8,567 nt of DNA from Candidatus Wukongarchaeum yapensis (GCA_016840425.1 JAEOSI010000085.1:1-8567), one strand, 5' to 3'. Shown: positions 1 through 8,567, numbered from the stretch's first letter. The notes: generated from the sequence alone by a model not told the origin. Made by a program: numbers and translations.

Positions 1-1170
1 ATGGGTAAGATAGAGTTATTACGCGGAAATTATGCAGCATCTTATGCTGCCAAACTTTCAAGGGTACAAGTAATAGCCGCATACCCTATAACACCTCAAA
101 CCTCTATAGTCGAGGTTTTAGCCAGCTATTGTACATCAGGGGAGTTGAAAGCGGCCTTTGTCCGGGTGGAAAGTGAACATTCAGCCATTTCCGCCGCTAT
201 TGGCGCATCGGCTACTGGAGCCCGAGTCTTCACAGCCAGCGGAAGTCAAGGCTTATTATACATGGCAGAAGGAGTGCATTGGGCTGCTGGCGCCCGTTTA
301 CCCATAATAATGGCAATAGTTAACAGGGCGTTAGCGGCCCCTTGGAGCGTTTGGACGGACCATCAAGATGCTATAAGCATGCGAGACTCTGGATGGATTC
401 AGTTTTTTGCTAAAAACAATCAAGAAGTTCTAGACACAATAATCCAAGCATACAAAGTGGCAGAAGACGTAAACGTTTGTCTCCCCGCCATGGTAAACCT
501 AGACGGGTTCATACTAAGTCACACTGTAATGCCCGTAGACATCCCAGAACAAGAAGAAGTAGACGACTTCCTACCACCAAGACCTCCAGGAGCCCCTTAC
601 GAACTTGACAGTAACAATCCACTAACCTACGGAAATATCGCAGATCCAACCTGCTACGATGAGTTCAGATTCAGTATGCACGAAGCCATGGAATATTCAA
701 AAGAAATGATTAGGAAAACAGCTAGAGAATTTGAACAAAAATTTGGCCGAAACCATGGTGCACTTTTAGAAGAGTACAGGTGCTCAAACGACGCAGAAAT
801 TCTAGTCTTTTCCATGGGAACCATGGCAGAAGAAGCAGAAATCGCAGTCGACCTTCTAAGAGACGAAGGAATCCGAGCAGGAAGCGTCAAAGTTCGTGTT
901 TTCAGGCCCTTCCCAGCAGAAGACATTATACGCATCTCAAACGGCTTGAAAGCAATATTAGTCCTTGACAGAAATCTAAGTTTCGGTTTAGGAGGAGCCC
1001 TAGCCTCTGAAATTAAAGCCTCCCTCTATCACGAAAAGCGCAAACCTTTCCTACGGGAACGAGTCATAGGTCTTGGGGGAAGAGATGTAACAGCGGAAAT
1101 TATCGCAGAAGAAATGCAAAAGACACTAAGAATGGTAGAAAAAGAGGAGGAGGTTGTTATATATGAGTAA
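1..1170 (+). CDS. porA: 2-oxoacid:ferredoxin oxidoreductase alpha subunit (PorA family; signatures resemble Thermococcales-type ketoisovalerate oxidoreductase VorA)
   Basis: 389-aa ORF with the alpha-subunit motifs GNYAA, YPITP, VESEHSA, SQGL, NRA (substrate Arg), LDGFILSH, VRVFRPFP, LDRN and GLGGRD. The ATG sits at position 1, so upstream context is not visible. Pyruvate versus branched-chain specificity cannot be settled from sequence. Confidence 0.93.
   Translation: MGKIELLRGNYAASYAAKLSRVQVIAAYPITPQTSIVEVLASYCTSGELKAAFVRVESEHSAISAAIGASATGARVFTASGSQGLLYMAEGVHWAAGARLPIIMAIVNRALAAPWSVWTDHQDAISMRDSGWIQFFAKNNQEVLDTIIQAYKVAEDVNVCLPAMVNLDGFILSHTVMPVDIPEQEEVDDFLPPRPPGAPYELDSNNPLTYGNIADPTCYDEFRFSMHEAMEYSKEMIRKTAREFEQKFGRNHGALLEEYRCSNDAEILVFSMGTMAEEAEIAVDLLRDEGIRAGSVKVRVFRPFPAEDIIRISNGLKAILVLDRNLSFGLGGALASEIKASLYHEKRKPFLRERVIGLGGRDVTAEIIAEEMQKTLRMVEKEEEVVIYE
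1149..1155 (+). promoter_or_regulatory. Shine-Dalgarno for the beta subunit, embedded in the Glu-rich 3' end of the alpha gene (translational coupling)
   Basis: GGAGGTT, 7 nt before ATG 1163, within the codons for EEEV. Confidence 0.7.
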
Positions 1171-2074
1171 AATAGTTCAAAAATTCGGAACTGATGAGTG
1201 GATTCTCCCAGGAAACGCTGCATGTCCCGGTTGTAGTGCAGTCCTTGCCCTAAGACACATACTAAAAGCCCTCGGAAAAGACACCTACCTAGTCATTCCT
1301 GCCAGCTGTGCTTCAGTTATTCAAGGCGTTTATCCGAGAACGGCTTCAAATGTTCCGTCCTTTAATGTCCCCTTTGCTTCTGCTGCTTCAGCAGCTTCAG
1401 GGATAAGACATGCTCTAAATGTATTGGGCAAAAAAGGCACTGTCCTTGCTTTCGCAGGAGACGGAGCAACCTACGACATCGGCTTATCCGCAGTTTCTGG
1501 AGCTGCAGAAAGAAATGAAGATATCGTCTATGTTTGTTATGATAACTCAGCCTATTCTAACACTGGCGTACAAAAGAGCGGGGCAACACCTATAGGAGCT
1601 TGGACAACCACCACGCCCACAGGAAGGGAAGGATGGCCCAAAGATTTGCCGTTAATAATGGCTGCCCACCAAGTACCTTACATGGCTACGGCTTCCGTAG
1701 GTTATCTAAACGATCTTCAAAGGAAGATTAAAGAAGCTAAAGATATCGAAGGTTTCCGCTATATTCACGTATTAGCGCCTTGCACCACAGGATGGCGTTT
1801 TCCTCCTGAAAAAACCATTAGAGTTGCAAAAATGTCCGTTTTAACAGGGTTTTGGATACTGTTTGAAGCAGAAAGGGGAATGATAAGGCTCACAGGCCCG
1901 AGCAAAAGGCTAAAAGATCCTTCAAAACGGGAACCTCTTGACGAGTTTTTAAAACTCCAAGAAAGATTCAAAGGCATAACCCCTGAGCAAAAGAAAGCCT
2001 TGCAAGAATGGATAGATTTTCAATGGACGATAATGCACTGGAAAATGATAGAATATCTGGAGAAGCAACCTTAA
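1163..2074 (+). CDS. porB: 2-oxoacid:ferredoxin oxidoreductase beta subunit (TPP-binding, [4Fe-4S]; PorB/VorB-like)
   Basis: ACPGC, IPASC and APCTTGW supply four cluster Cys. TPP/Mg motif GDG (1457-1465) ... YDNSAYSNTG (DN..NTG at 1541-1567). The start is more likely ATG 1163 than TTG 1154 because GGAGGTT (1149-1155) lies 7 nt upstream. The gene overlaps the alpha stop by 8 nt (ATGAGTAA). Confidence 0.93.
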   Translation: MSKIVQKFGTDEWILPGNAACPGCSAVLALRHILKALGKDTYLVIPASCASVIQGVYPRTASNVPSFNVPFASAASAASGIRHALNVLGKKGTVLAFAGDGATYDIGLSAVSGAAERNEDIVYVCYDNSAYSNTGVQKSGATPIGAWTTTTPTGREGWPKDLPLIMAAHQVPYMATASVGYLNDLQRKIKEAKDIEGFRYIHVLAPCTTGWRFPPEKTIRVAKMSVLTGFWILFEAERGMIRLTGPSKRLKDPSKREPLDEFLKLQERFKGITPEQKKALQEWIDFQWTIMHWKMIEYLEKQP

Positions 2075-3494: not shown

Positions 3495-3899
3495 ATGCCA
3501 AGAGCTCGGGATTTTCCCTTTGAAAAAAATAAAAAGCTCCGTTTACAAGACCTTGAAGAGATATCACCAATAAAGTTCCTCCGAGCCCTAGTCTACGTAA
3601 ACCAATCCCACATAAGAAAATACCTAGAAGAACACATAAAAGGAGCAGGAGGCGAGCTACCCCTTGAAATCTTCAGCGAATCAGAAAAGTTCTTCTCATG
3701 CAGCTTCATAAACTCAGGCTACCGCGTATTCATAACCATTGAAGATGAAAGAAAAGTAGAAGTTGAAATCGCTTACTCTCCCCTATACTGGAGTCAAAGC
3801 CAAGCCCTAGAAATAGCAAGACTCTGGAATGATCTCCTCTCACAAAGCCTCCCAATATGGAAAATAATCCTTGGCAACGTCTTAGAGTATGCCCACTAA
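3495..3899 (+). CDS. Hypothetical protein, 134 aa, soluble alpha+beta
   Basis: ATG start with SD-like AAAGGTT. Wobble bases are mostly A/C, as in the other + strand genes. It fills the gap between flanking genes without overlap. No family recognised. Confidence 0.75.
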   Translation: MPRARDFPFEKNKKLRLQDLEEISPIKFLRALVYVNQSHIRKYLEEHIKGAGGELPLEIFSESEKFFSCSFINSGYRVFITIEDERKVEVEIAYSPLYWSQSQALEIARLWNDLLSQSLPIWKIILGNVLEYAH

Positions 3900-3950: not shown

Positions 3951-4946
3951 TTAAATTTTTTCATTTTTCCTTTCTATCTCTTCTAAGAGTATGAAGAGTA
4001 TAGCAGAACCTATCAGGATTCCCCCACTCACAATAAAAAAGCTTATTTTTTCACTAAGTAACAAAACGGATAAAATTACAGCAAAAACGATCTCTAAAAG
4101 AAGCCAAACAGCAGAGGTAGTAGCTTCCATCTCCTCAAGACTTACATACCAAGCACCAAAAGCCAAAACCGTACAAAAAAGACCCAAATAAACTATTACG
4201 CAAACCTCTTTCCATTCAAGTTTTAAAACATCCCCAGTATCGGTTAAAGGAAGCAATAAAAGAAGAAACAATGTCGTGATAATTATAACCCAAAGATTGG
4301 TTATCAAACCCCCTTGAGCAGAACTGTTTTCTCTTGGATTATCAAGCCATTTTTTAGACATTATTATAAAAACAGCCCAGAGAAAGCCTGCAGAAAGAAC
4401 CATCATGTCCCCTAAAAACGTTTTAGAACTCACGGTTTCAAGCTTTCCCTCAGTGGTTACTAAAATTGCCCCAAAAACCCCTATAAAAACTGATAAAACC
4501 TTCTTAAAGCTGAAACTCTCCCCTAAAAATTTGTAAGAGATAATAGCAACGAACACTACGTTGAGATTTATGAGTAAAGCAGACTTCCCAGCGGTAGTAA
4601 GCTCCATACCATAAAACTGAAAAATTAAAGCTAAAGCGTTTAAAAGACCTAAAATCAAAAAGGCAGAAGAAAAACTTTCAAAAAATCCCTTCCCCTTCAA
4701 AAGATAAATTAAAAGCGGTAAAGCTACAATAAACGCCACTAAAAACCTAAAAATAACAAAAAACAACGGATCCAAACCTAAATTCAACCCCCATTTTACT
4801 GCAGGAAAAGAAGAACCCCAAATTAAACTAGCAGAAAACACTAATAGCGTAGCCCTATAAGCCGAAAAATTACGCTCCTCCTCCCCTCTATTACCGCCAC
4901 CATCTCCATCATCAAAACCCATAACATCTTCCACAACAATACACAA
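3951..4946 (-). CDS. EamA/DMT family transporter, paralog 1 (two EamA repeats, about 10 TM)
   Basis: SLIWGSSFPAVK, FRFLVA, KSALLIN..VF..IISYKFLGE.....K, GDMMVLSAG.LWAVF..MSK, LGLFCTVLAF..W...L, LLLSE. The start is uncertain: TTG 4946, GTG 4934 or ATG 4922. Confidence 0.92.
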   Translation of the reverse strand: MCIVVEDVMGFDDGDGGGNRGEEERNFSAYRATLLVFSASLIWGSSFPAVKWGLNLGLDPLFFVIFRFLVAFIVALPLLIYLLKGKGFFESFSSAFLILGLLNALALIFQFYGMELTTAGKSALLINLNVVFVAIISYKFLGESFSFKKVLSVFIGVFGAILVTTEGKLETVSSKTFLGDMMVLSAGFLWAVFIIMSKKWLDNPRENSSAQGGLITNLWVIIITTLFLLLLLPLTDTGDVLKLEWKEVCVIVYLGLFCTVLAFGAWYVSLEEMEATTSAVWLLLEIVFAVILSVLLLSEKISFFIVSGGILIGSAILFILLEEIERKNEKI

Positions 4947-5005
4947 TCCTATTTACAAACATTAGAATAAACAGAAAGTAAGGAAAGGGGGGAATCTCTA
5001 CGCTT

Positions 5006-5950
5006 TTAAACAATGTGGGGTAAAACTTCTTTACTTTTCTCTATATCTTCTAAAACGACAAAGAGTATAGAAAATCCTATAAGGCTTCCCCCACTCGCAA
5101 TGAAAAAGGTTATGCTTTCATCAAGAAATAAAGCGGCTAAAAACACAGCAAACACGATACTTAAAAGAAGATAGACCACAGAAACAGTAGCCTCCATATC
5201 TTCAAGACTCACATACCAAGCACCAAAGGCCAAAACCGTGCAAAAAAACCCTAAAAAAACTATAACAAGAAACTCCCTCCATCCAAGTTCTAAAGCCTCC
5301 CCTGTGTCAGTGAAAGGAAGCAACAGAAAAAGAAACAATGCCGTGATAATTATAACCCAAAGATTGGTTATCAAACCCCCTTGATCGAAGCCATTTTCCT
5401 CCGAATAGTCAAGCCATTTTTTAGACAATACTATAAAAACAGCCCAAATAATCCCCGCAGAAAGGACCATCATGTCCCCTAAAAACGTTTTAGAACTGAC
5501 AGTTTCAAGCCTTCCTTCAGTGGTTATAAAAACCGCTCCAAAACCCCCTAAAAAAACCGCTAAAACCTTTTTCAACCCGAAGCTCTCCCCTAAAAACTTG
5601 TAAGAAATAATGGCGACAAATACAATGTCAAAATTTATAAGCAAAGCAGACTTCCCAGCAGTAGTAAGCTCCATCCCATAAAACTGGAGAACAAAAGCTA
5701 AAGCGTTTAAAAAACCTAAAACAAAGAAAACAAAAGAGAAACTTTCAAAAAAACCCCTACCTCTTAAAAGAAACTTTAAAAGCGGTAAAGCTACAATAAA
5801 CGCCACTAAAAACCTAAAAATAACAAAAAACAACGGGTTCAGCCCTAAATCCAATCCATATTTTATTGCAGGAAAAGCAGAACCCCATAATAAACTAGCA
5901 GAAATCACCAAAAATCTAGCCCTTATTGCTGAACCCACAACAAACCACAT
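5006..5950 (-). CDS. EamA/DMT family transporter, paralog 2
   Basis: Same motif set as paralog 1. Colinear with it at a constant 1067-nt offset. 224 of 304 core residues are identical by hand alignment. Start is ATG 5950, or possibly GTG 5938. Confidence 0.92.
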   Translation of the reverse strand: MWFVVGSAIRARFLVISASLLWGSAFPAIKYGLDLGLNPLFFVIFRFLVAFIVALPLLKFLLRGRGFFESFSFVFFVLGFLNALAFVLQFYGMELTTAGKSALLINFDIVFVAIISYKFLGESFGLKKVLAVFLGGFGAVFITTEGRLETVSSKTFLGDMMVLSAGIIWAVFIVLSKKWLDYSEENGFDQGGLITNLWVIIITALFLFLLLPFTDTGEALELGWREFLVIVFLGFFCTVLAFGAWYVSLEDMEATVSVVYLLLSIVFAVFLAALFLDESITFFIASGGSLIGFSILFVVLEDIEKSKEVLPHIV

Positions 5951-6065: not shown

Positions 6066-7826
6066 ATGGAAAAATTAAAAAGTCAAATTATGCGAAAAAA
6101 AGGACCAGAAATAGACGCCTTAAAACTGGCAGCAGGGTGGGATAAAGAAGACCTCGAAAAACCATGGGTTATGATAGAATCTGCCTACGGTCATGCCTCC
6201 CCGTGCAGTTATTTCCTCGACCAAATAGTAAAAAAGGCAGAACAAGGTGTCTGGGAAGCAGGAGGCGCCCCCTCTCTATACTTCTTTTCTCATGTTTGTG
6301 ACGGCGTAGCTCAAGGAACCGAAGGAATGCGCTACAGCCTACCTATGAGAGACATCTACTCTTTTGGAGTAGAAGGCCACTTTCACATGGGCCACTACGA
6401 CGCCTTAATCCTAATATCAGGAGGCGATAAAGACCTCCCAGGTTTCATGATGGCAGCAGCAAACCTCAAAGTTCCCACCATATTCATCCCAGGAGGCTCC
6501 ATGGCGGAAGGACCAGACATGAGAAGAAATATGGGCCCAATGACCCTCGAACGTGTCGGAACAATCTACTCCATGCTCAAAAGAGACGAAATATCCCAAG
6601 AAGAATACGAGTTCCTAAGAGAAAGCTCATGCCCCACATGCTACGGAACCTGCGCCTTTCTCGGAACCGCTCACACCATGCAAATAATGAGCGAAGCCTT
6701 AGGCCTTGCTTTACCCACCTCCGCCTCTTGTCCTACCCACCAAAAAGAGATCCTTTTCCTTGCAAAAAAAGCAGGAAGACAGATCATAAACCTCATAGAA
6801 AACGGCATCACCGCAAAACATATTCTCACCCAAGAAGCCTTCGAAAACGCGATAATGATCCACTCCGCAATATCAGGATCAACAAACACTCTCCTACACC
6901 TCCCAGTCATCGCAAAAGAAGCAGGCGTAAAAATCACCATAGAAGACTTCGACAGACTCCACAGAAAAATACCCTTCATAGTAAACTGCAGACCAACAGG
7001 CTTCCACCCCATCCCCGCCTTCTGGTACGCAGGAGGCGTCCAAAGAGTAATAAAAGAGTTAGAAAACCACCTCCACATGGACGCCCTAACAGCCACAGGA
7101 AAAACCGTGAAAGAAAACCTCGAAGAACTGGAAAAACAAAGATACTTCCAAAAAATGGAAAGATACCTCACAAACTACAAGCTAAAAACAGAAAATGTCA
7201 TAAGACCTATAAACAACCCCCTAACCGAAACAGGCGCCATAGCCATCCTAAAAGGAAACCTTGCCCCCGAAGGCTCGGTGATAAAAATTTCAGCCCTAGA
7301 CACCTCAATGTTCGTCTTCGAAGGAACAGCCAAACCCTTCGACGGACAAGAAGCTGCAATAAACGCCGTATTCTCGGGAGAAATAGAGACAGGAGACATA
7401 ATGATAATCCGATACGAAGGTCCAAGAAGAGGATGCCCAGAACAATACTACGTAACAGAAGCCATAGCAAGCAGCGAAAAACTAAGCAAAACAACAGCCC
7501 TAATAACCGACGGTAGATTCTCAGGAGCAAGCAGAGGCCCATGCATAGGACACGCCTCCCCAGAAGCCATGGCAGGAGGCCCCATAGCCGTCATAGAAGA
7601 AGGAGATATGATCAGCATAAACATCTCGAAAAGAACCCTAAACATCACAGGCACAAAAGGAGAAAAACAAACAGAAGAAGAGATAACACAAACCCTAAAA
7701 AACCGCTTAGAAAAATGGACCCTACCAGAAGAACTAATCCCAAAAAACGGCCTATTATCACTCTACTCAAAAACAGCCGCAAGTGCAGCAAAAGGAGGAT
7801 ACATCGAAAGAAACTTCCTCTTCTAA
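6066..7826 (+). CDS. ilvD: IlvD/Edd-family dehydratase (dihydroxy-acid or sugar-acid dehydratase-like) with non-canonical Fe-S motif
   Basis: CDGVAQG, xDK (G120-D121-K122), PGGSM, CPTCYGTC..LGTA, EALGLALP, AISGSTNTLLHL, AGG, LKGNLAPEGSVIK, IRYEGP, LITDGRFSGA (catalytic Ser486) and IGHASPEA..GGPI. The family call is firm; the substrate is not. Confidence 0.9.
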   Translation: MEKLKSQIMRKKGPEIDALKLAAGWDKEDLEKPWVMIESAYGHASPCSYFLDQIVKKAEQGVWEAGGAPSLYFFSHVCDGVAQGTEGMRYSLPMRDIYSFGVEGHFHMGHYDALILISGGDKDLPGFMMAAANLKVPTIFIPGGSMAEGPDMRRNMGPMTLERVGTIYSMLKRDEISQEEYEFLRESSCPTCYGTCAFLGTAHTMQIMSEALGLALPTSASCPTHQKEILFLAKKAGRQIINLIENGITAKHILTQEAFENAIMIHSAISGSTNTLLHLPVIAKEAGVKITIEDFDRLHRKIPFIVNCRPTGFHPIPAFWYAGGVQRVIKELENHLHMDALTATGKTVKENLEELEKQRYFQKMERYLTNYKLKTENVIRPINNPLTETGAIAILKGNLAPEGSVIKISALDTSMFVFEGTAKPFDGQEAAINAVFSGEIETGDIMIIRYEGPRRGCPEQYYVTEAIASSEKLSKTTALITDGRFSGASRGPCIGHASPEAMAGGPIAVIEEGDMISINISKRTLNITGTKGEKQTEEEITQTLKNRLEKWTLPEELIPKNGLLSLYSKTAASAAKGGYIERNFLF

Positions 7827-7852: not shown

Positions 7853-8557
7853 TTATTGCTCTATAAGACATGCTATAACGCGGGCAGGTCCTCCATCAAC
7901 ACCTTTAAGCTTTAAAGGTAAACAGATAACAAACACCCTATTACCCACCAACTCTCCCATCACTTTCGAAAGCGACTCAATCAAGGGCACACCACTTCCA
8001 AGCAACAAACGATGAACAACAGGTTCAGAAAACCCAAACTTCTCAACACTCATACAATCAATACCCACCATCTTAACATCCTTCTCCAAAAGCCACATGG
8101 CCCCAGAATCCTCAATATAAGTAAATCTTCTATAATCCCATCCCTCCTCTCCCCAATGATCACTTGTGCCCGTATAAATAAGCACAATATCCCCTTCTTT
8201 CACCAAAGAAGAAAATTTCTCAAAATCCTCCCAAGAAAGTCCAGTCCCCACTTCCCTGTAACTCAGATCCAGAACCACACCCTCTCCCATCAAAGTGGAA
8301 AGCGGAATCTCATCCAAAGAAGAACCACCCTCAACAAAATGAATAGGTGCATCAATATGAGTGCCCACATGAGACCCCATAACAAGCCTCGTCAAATTAA
8401 CACCCTCCTCATCAAGACTCGCCACCCTCTCAACAGAAGGCTCAGGATCACCTGGATAAACAGGCATACCATTCTCAATCACATGAGACAAATCAAAAAA
8501 ACGAGAAACATCAACCTTCACTTCATCAAAAGAAACAATAAAAGACCCCAAATCCAT
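7853..8557 (-). CDS. Cyclase-family metal-dependent hydrolase (kynurenine formamidase KynB-like)
   Basis: FDLSH..ENGMPVYPGDP, diagnostic HVGTHIDAPIHF (HxGTHxDxPxH), GDIVLIYTG, GIDCMSVE, H..LL, IE (metal Glu) and PLKL.GVDGGPARV. ATG 8557 follows GGAG (8567-8564) at 6 nt, giving 234 aa. True kynurenine specificity is not shown. Confidence 0.92.
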   Translation of the reverse strand: MDLGSFIVSFDEVKVDVSRFFDLSHVIENGMPVYPGDPEPSVERVASLDEEGVNLTRLVMGSHVGTHIDAPIHFVEGGSSLDEIPLSTLMGEGVVLDLSYREVGTGLSWEDFEKFSSLVKEGDIVLIYTGTSDHWGEEGWDYRRFTYIEDSGAMWLLEKDVKMVGIDCMSVEKFGFSEPVVHRLLLGSGVPLIESLSKVMGELVGNRVFVICLPLKLKGVDGGPARVIACLIEQ

Positions 8558-8567
8558 CAAAAACTCC

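Follow-up and report, generated by a model that had tools for sequence, protein, structure and literature searches.

On the plus strand of an 8,567-nucleotide contig of Candidatus Wukongarchaeum yapensis (GCA_016840425.1, JAEOSI010000085.1:1-8567; this whole stretch is called the window below), positions 6066 to 7826 encode a dehydratase of the IlvD/Edd family in which a glycine stands in place of the cysteine of the Cys-Asp-Lys (CDK) motif. This cysteine has been described as fully or strictly conserved and as an indispensable ligand of the iron–sulfur (Fe-S) cluster (PMC5770437, PMC9543379), the first PROSITE signature of the family begins with it (quoted in PMC5770437), and a superfamily classification from 2022 contains CDK-bearing classes only (PMC9314677). 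In the literature that we searched, whose coverage mostly leaves out subscription journals, no description of natural members without this cysteine was found. The gene and the residues discussed in the following are:

6066..7826, plus strand: IlvD/Edd-family dehydratase paralogue (P0001), 586 aa; PF00920 1.5e-98, PF24877 1.3e-58
6204..6206, plus strand: C47, the 'PC' cysteine (PCSY), at the position that binds Fe1 in [2Fe-2S] members
6297..6302, plus strand: C78-D79 of the CDG motif (VCDG), a putative Edd-type ligand and the Mg-ligand Asp
6423..6425, plus strand: codon GGC, G120, replacing the Cys of the CDK signature (base read-out; HMMER alignment)
6426..6434, plus strand: D121, a Mg ligand position, and K122, the carbamylatable Lys, followed by the clade-specific D123
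6651..6653, plus strand: C196, at the universal GxC cluster-ligand position (GTC), invariant in 111 homologues
7428..7442, plus strand: R455-G-C457-P-E459, a remodelled loop in which a clade-specific Cys precedes the Mg-binding Glu by two residues
7521..7523, plus strand: S486, the catalytic serine of signature 2 (GRFSGAS), invariant in 111 homologues

The product belongs to the superfamily, as it matches PF00920 over the complete model (330.3 bits, cut-off 27, positions 1-316 of 316) and PF24877 over positions 1-190 of 191 (198 bits, cut-off 27.7). Translation and base read-out placed the GDK sequence and every other motif named in the original prediction at the residue given there, including TAH (H203), GCPEQ (C457, E459) and the segment EGHFHMGHYD (103-112). 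Residues 478-489, ALITDGRFSGAS, match the second PROSITE signature (T-D-[GA]-R-x-S-[GA]-[GAV]-[ST]), and at the place of the first one (C-D-K-x2-P-[GA]-x3-[GA]) the protein reads G-D-K-D-L-P-G. The residues for Mg2+ binding and catalysis are kept, as had been proposed: D79, D121, K122 and S486 show no variation among the 111 homologues, in which E459 is conserved to at least 90%. An AlphaFold2 (AF2) model with a predicted local distance difference test score (pLDDT) of 96.2 and a predicted template-modelling score (pTM) of 0.95 has the two-domain fold of dihydroxy-acid dehydratases (DHAD), with Foldseek template-modelling (TM) scores of 0.86-0.91 to 6ovt and 5ze4. Four cysteines of the protein, namely C47, C78, C196 and C457, are candidates for cluster ligands.

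Glycine at the CDK position

Pairwise HMMER alignments with the solved DHADs 6ovt and 6nte placed G120 opposite their CDK cysteine. As GGC is only one base away from TGC, the glycine might have been an assembly or sequencing artefact, and the codon was checked with Logan contigs of four public runs from four studies (marine sediment, seawater and marsh), which were mapped onto the gene. Over 6066-6670 the contigs of runs X1 and X2 do not differ from the window, and the contig of run X3, which comes from a variant strain and covers 6138-6718, differs at three sites, none of them at 6423-6425. The homologue P0002 from an independent ENA assembly, 93% identical to the window protein, likewise shows GGDKD, and all 13 members of the clade described below are without a cysteine at this position. 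GGC and not TGC therefore stands in the contigs of three runs, including the variant strain, and in P0002, which refutes the artefact and leaves it practically no probability.

A codon comparison between the window gene and that of P0002 gave a dS (synonymous) of 0.385 and a dN (nonsynonymous) of 0.036, resulting in a dN/dS of 0.093, and none of the 42 amino-acid differences between both proteins is found at C47, C78, G120, D121, K122, C196, C457, E459 or S486. Because of this low ratio and the untouched candidate ligand and catalytic residues, the gene is under strong purifying selection and is not decaying, in agreement with the original prediction; it is real and inherited.

Place in the family and turnover of cluster cysteines

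For the phylogenetic analysis 231 full-length homologues were used, derived from the best 120 sequences of a 90%-cluster database and 150 representatives of a 50%-cluster library, with E. coli IlvD, Edd and YagF (NC_000913.3) taken in as well, and trees were calculated with FastTree from all 231 rows and with IQ-TREE from 57 rows. The tree is divided into two main branches with 100% support. E. coli IlvD belongs to the first one, as do the [2Fe-2S]-type DHADs and Edd, and the second one holds E. coli YagF together with many proteins from Clostridia, Methanocella, Asgard and other archaea that carry the automatic name 'dihydroxy-acid dehydratase'. The window protein is located in the second branch, on the side of the xylonate dehydratase YagF. 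Six sampled members of this branch all stay below every NCBIfam cut-off, showing that it represents an unmodelled subfamily. The same applies to the window protein, which scored 515.9 with the IlvD model NF002068 (cut-off 644) and 511 with TIGR00110 (618.15) as its best NCBIfam matches, 340.2 with the L-arabinonate dehydratase model NF009559 (882), 338.5 with the YjhG/YagF model TIGR03432 (808.15) and 239.5 with the Edd model TIGR01196 (708.25).

That the best matches are IlvD models, that the public relatives are named as dihydroxy-acid dehydratases and that a VOR/POR-like 2-oxoacid oxidoreductase is encoded 4 kb away could point to a divergent dihydroxy-acid dehydratase of branched-chain amino-acid synthesis. 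We regard this as very improbable, as both IlvD scores are under their cut-offs, the window gene and the IlvD branch are separated in the tree at 100% support, and Pfam and NCBIfam profile searches of the window confirmed that it contains no ilvB, ilvC or leu genes. Furthermore, the genome has another IlvD gene with canonical GPGMREM and GRFSGGT motifs on contigs C13 and C273. Rather than being the housekeeping ilvD, the window gene is a second, non-housekeeping IlvD/Edd paralogue. The canonical ilvD is split over two contig ends (G000:C13:1-981 and G000:C273:4-87), and its middle part including the CDK motif is unassembled. Other Asgard genomes have the canonical ilvD type with CDK, the best Asgard relatives of the window protein are 53% identical and keep CDK as well, and the closest public relative, at 59% identity, is labelled Bathyarchaeia. 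A search for related loci in a set of genome contigs with the window protein alone as query found no relative.

Within the second branch P0002 pairs with the window protein, and both belong to a clade of 13 rows with 100% support in FastTree as well as in IQ-TREE. None of the 13 members has the CDK cysteine, 11 of them showing Glu and two Gly at this position. The usual pattern of the branch at positions 47, 78, 120, 196 and 457 is G-C-C-C-M, which means cysteines in CDG, CDK and GxC and none in PC. Compared with the remaining 120 rows of the branch, the clade shows:

C47 (PC): 13/13 in the clade, 9/120 in the rest of the branch
C78 (CDG): 4/13 in the clade, with Asn in the other nine members, 120/120 in the rest of the branch
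D123: 13/13 in the clade, 0% in the rest of the branch
C189: 13/13 in the clade, 119/120 in the rest of the branch
C196 (GxC): 13/13 in the clade, 120/120 in the rest of the branch
C457 (GCPEQ): 12/13 in the clade, 0/120 in the rest of the branch

The signature of the clade consists of C47, D123, R455, C457 and a Mg-loop that is shorter by one residue, and its members also share a C-terminal tail. The cysteine combination of the window protein is as unusual as had been predicted, with PC, CDG and GDK occurring together in only three of the 231 rows. H76, H203 and the His-rich segment had been counted among the remodelled features too; they are peculiar to the window lineage and vary within the clade, and therefore do not belong to a conserved remodelling. 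At window positions 6630-6653 an inserted Tyr, also peculiar to the window lineage, creates the sequence C189-x2-C192-x3-C196 (CPTCYGTC), and C192 occurs in just two of the 13 members of the clade and in no other of the 231 rows.

Loss of the CDK cysteine is not restricted to this clade. Across the subfamily the best IQ-TREE tree gives ten changes of its state, and a count restricted to strongly supported branches gives at least six, with Ser, Gly, Ala, Asn and Glu as replacements and with patterns such as G-C-S-C-M and S-C-A-C-M. According to raw counts in the branch, the PC cysteine is present in 20 of 28 rows without the CDK cysteine vs two of 105 rows that keep it. For loss of the CDK cysteine and gain of the GCPE cysteine an independent-pairs test was not significant, with too few informative pairs. 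Two members of the subfamily (P0070 and P0090) possess all four cysteines of PC, CDG, CDK and GxC and may represent an intermediate state in the ligand turnover. On the IlvD side two proteins (P0146 with P-S-G-G-M and P0173 with E-T-G-V-M) have none of the cluster cysteines while GRFSG and GPGMREM are kept, and these may be cluster-free or dead paralogues.

Could the window protein have lost its cluster and now be a pseudoenzyme, a binding protein or a dehydratase working with its divalent metal site alone? The CDK cysteine is treated as an indispensable ligand (PMC5770437, PMC9543379), and P0146 and P0173 demonstrate that degenerate homologues without cluster cysteines exist. In the window protein, however, three cysteines at canonical positions are conserved along with a fourth one specific to the clade. 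Its residues for Mg binding and catalysis are invariant, dN/dS is 0.09, and relatives without the CDK cysteine fill the dehydratase slot of complete sugar-oxidation clusters (see below). We therefore consider a loss of the cluster to be quite unlikely.

A comparison with characterized enzymes shows how the window protein combines features of different groups. In the [2Fe-2S] enzymes the PC and CDK cysteines both bind Fe1 and the GxC cysteine binds Fe2 (PMC5770437), the PC ligand being Cys60 in CcXyDHT and Cys66 in AtDHAD (PMC5770437, PMC9543379). With the [2Fe-2S] DHADs and pentonate dehydratases (M. tuberculosis 6OVT, A. thaliana 5ZE4, RlArDHT 5J84, CcXyDHT 5OYN) the window protein shares the fold (TM 0.81-0.91), the Mg ligands, the catalytic Ser and their hallmark PC cysteine, here C47. 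These enzymes use PC, CDK and GxC and have Ser, Thr or Glu ahead of the Mg-binding Asp/Glu, whereas the window protein has no CDK cysteine, possesses the CDG motif, is only 28-36% identical to them and is located in the other main branch of the tree. The D-xylonate dehydratases YagF and YjhG of E. coli belong to the same 100%-supported branch as the window protein, with which they have the CDG and GxC cysteines in common. In contrast to the window protein, YagF keeps CDK, has Gly at the PC position (GCCCM) and forms a very long separate branch. In the [4Fe-4S] enzyme Edd (2GP4, TIGR01196) the CDG cysteine has been proposed as the corresponding cluster ligand (PMC5770437), and an Entner-Doudoroff-type role, which we propose for the window protein, would also be common to both. 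Unlike the window protein, Edd keeps CDK and has no PC cysteine (ACCCM), and the structural match is weaker (TM 0.62-0.75).

Gene neighbourhoods and sugar oxidation genes

In four relatives without the CDK cysteine (P0005, P0008, P0012 and P0013) a gene for a DHDPS-type aldolase is located immediately upstream of the dehydratase gene, resembling the position of yagF after yagE, and genes for a glucoamylase (GH15), an aldehyde dehydrogenase, a glycerate kinase (MOFRL) and a PF04199 protein are found nearby. The Odinarchaeia homologue P0018 (GDK; locus L054) is part of an apparent operon with the order glucose-dehydrogenase-like gene, dehydratase and PF04199 gene, the last two overlapping by 4 bp. 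The Thermoplasmata homologue P0089 (SDK) lies amid genes for glycerate kinase, aldolase, aldehyde dehydrogenase, a glucose-dehydrogenase-like protein, GH15 and PF04199, which is the gene set of the non-phosphorylative Entner-Doudoroff pathway. The two CDK-bearing members that were examined, from Vallitalea and Methanocella, showed no sugar-oxidation context. By analogy to YagF, the role of an aldonic-acid dehydratase may apply to the window protein as well.

The neighbours of the dehydratase gene in the window are:

1..2074, plus strand: alpha and beta subunits of a 2-oxoacid:ferredoxin oxidoreductase (VOR/POR-like)
3495..3899, plus strand: open reading frame of 134 aa between the glycosyltransferase and EamA genes, with no Pfam or NCBIfam match
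3951..5950, minus strand: two tandem EamA (DMT) transporter genes (PF00892), divergent from the dehydratase gene with a 115-bp spacer
7853..8560, minus strand: PF04199 'cyclase'-family hydrolase (Pfam 8.6e-35), convergent, 26 bp past the dehydratase stop codon

The PF04199 gene at 7853-8560 is a candidate pathway partner of the dehydratase, and on the contig of P0002 a PF04199 gene also adjoins the dehydratase gene. Further PF04199 genes are located as follows:

L054:7758-8375
L055:12528-13166
L006:15343-15981
L010:7162-7794
L011:582-1199
L050:2824-3501

Those on L006, L010, L011 and L055 are within 7 kb of a dehydratase gene. These arylformamidase-like genes recur beside or within 7 kb of dehydratases without the CDK cysteine in at least four lineages, and their products could provide the aldonolactonase still missing from these pathways. 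To our knowledge no aldonolactonase function has been described for the PF04199 family. A functional tie between the dehydratase and the pair of EamA transporters is possible.

On two soil-metagenome contigs with an EDK-type dehydratase a second paralogue of the [2Fe-2S] type (C-S-C-C-M) is encoded a few kb away (L004:1098-2837 and L011:1207-2898), adjoining genes for an aldehyde dehydrogenase and GH15, so that one sugar cluster can hold two different members of the family. The oxidoreductase at the start of the window has PorA_Arch and the VOR beta subunit as best matches, both slightly below the curated cut-offs; the reading frame of its alpha subunit starts at contig base 1, and genes for gamma and delta subunits are absent from the window and may lie upstream, off the contig.

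Genes for other steps of such a route are present elsewhere in the genome. On C171 (L058:1489-3611) a GH15 gene overlaps a glucose-dehydrogenase-like gene of the MDR type, on C159 (L051:3922-5661) a DHDPS-like gene is located beside a KDG-kinase-like PfkB gene, and on C162 (L050:1631-4401) genes for an F420-dependent oxidoreductase of the G6PDH family, a PF04199 protein and a DHDPS-like protein stand in a row, the PF04199 protein being 51% identical to that of the window. In this genome, which is 92% complete, no match to the enolase superfamily over the cut-off and no UxuA dehydratase were found, leaving the window gene as the only candidate acid-sugar dehydratase found.

Proposed enzyme and reaction

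The window protein is probably an active dehydratase that depends on Mg2+ and an Fe-S cluster and has 2,3-dihydroxy (aldonic) acids as substrates; it would hold its cluster without the CDK cysteine and act in an Entner-Doudoroff-like route. Cluster binding, the ligands, the cluster type and the substrate are what we infer for this enzyme, and the reaction might proceed as follows. According to the chemistry of the family (PMC5770437), Mg2+ would be held by D79, D121, the carbamylated K122 and E459 and would bind the carboxylate and the C2-OH of the substrate. S486 would take the C2 proton, in agreement with the catalytic role of the signature-2 Ser (PMC5770437), and one iron of the cluster would take the C3-OH. 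The thiolates would probably come from C47 and C196, plus C78 and/or the clade-specific C457. In the solved enzymes the thiolates of PC and CDK bind one and the same iron, which could make C47 the natural stand-in for the lost CDK cysteine. The third thiolate might be provided by C78, which is ancestral in the branch, or by C457, which appeared when the CDK cysteine was lost and is located on the shortened loop. The likely role would be the conversion of gluconate or a related aldonate into the 2-keto-3-deoxy acid, as the acid-sugar dehydratase step of an oxidative, Entner-Doudoroff-like route. The remaining genes for this route (glucose-dehydrogenase-like, PF04199 hydrolase, DHDPS-type aldolase and KDG-kinase-like) adjoin the dehydratase gene or are located on other contigs. 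The original prediction had also raised a possibly new substrate; it was correct in that the protein is not an enzyme of branched-chain amino-acid synthesis, but the gene context suggests an ordinary substrate class, the aldonic acids.

Several observations weigh against this proposal. The window gene itself has neither an aldolase nor a dehydrogenase gene as neighbour, and its nearest EDK relatives P0003 and P0004 are located on short contigs without sugar genes, next to genes for cupredoxin and thioredoxin-like proteins. The DHDPS-like proteins of the genome share only about 31-33% identity with the aldolases that accompany the clade, and orthology between them could not be demonstrated. In a genome of the same genus (G001, 87% complete) there was no match at E<=1e-100 and no orthologue was seen; together with the CDK kept in the best Asgard relatives this leaves vertical inheritance in the lineage unsupported. 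In addition, an ancestry-corrected pairs test of CDK loss vs PC gain was not significant (about two informative pairs, p ~0.5), and the apparent association of both is one of the raw counts. Finally, eight rows without the CDK cysteine keep only the CDG and GxC cysteines, suggesting that two cysteines at canonical positions can suffice or that other ligands exist, which weakens a simple swap and argues against a single replacement rule.

Some of these points would also fit a re-wired, active Fe-S dehydratase whose substrate is not an aldonic acid of the Entner-Doudoroff type but another 2,3-dihydroxy acid, such as D-glycerate or a metabolite taken up or exported by the divergently placed EamA transporters. 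Such a substrate would agree with the two EamA genes, with the missing aldolase neighbour that is seen in the NDG/EDK subclade, with the cupredoxin and thioredoxin-like neighbours of P0003 and P0004, and with the changes of the window lineage itself, namely E120G, M82A and the inserted Tyr creating C-x2-C-x3-C. As the PF04199 neighbour is common to the relatives in sugar clusters, and the rest of an Entner-Doudoroff-like set is present in the genome with no second candidate acid-sugar dehydratase found, we consider a substrate of this kind unlikely, although less so than a loss of the cluster. The window protein is thus most likely a new variant within the IlvD/Edd family, an aldonic-acid dehydratase without the canonical CDK cysteine.

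A broader reading, which we put forward only tentatively, is that a subfamily found mostly in uncultured archaea has repeatedly dropped the CDK cysteine and rebuilt the Fe-S site elsewhere, in the window clade with the PC cysteine and a new cysteine (GCPEQ) that lies in the C-terminal domain on the loop binding Mg. Cluster type or oxygen tolerance might have changed along with this. Together with PF04199 lactonases it might form an undescribed archaeal variant of the non-phosphorylative Entner-Doudoroff pathway, which would use a gluconate dehydratase of the IlvD/Edd type and not of the enolase type.

Natural enzymes that lack the CDK cysteine and are kept under selection indicate a greater plasticity of the cluster site than had been assumed. 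They are test cases for the relation of ligand position to cluster type ([2Fe-2S] vs [4Fe-4S]) and to oxygen stability, which restricts the use of these dehydratases in cell-free or engineered pathways from sugars to chemicals. Their gene context suggests that an acid-sugar dehydratase of the IlvD/Edd type and possibly a new lactonase family take part in archaeal sugar oxidation. The wider point may outweigh the single gene, as a cysteine regarded as invariant has been lost repeatedly in a subfamily that is rich in archaea and fills the dehydratase slot of sugar-oxidation clusters.

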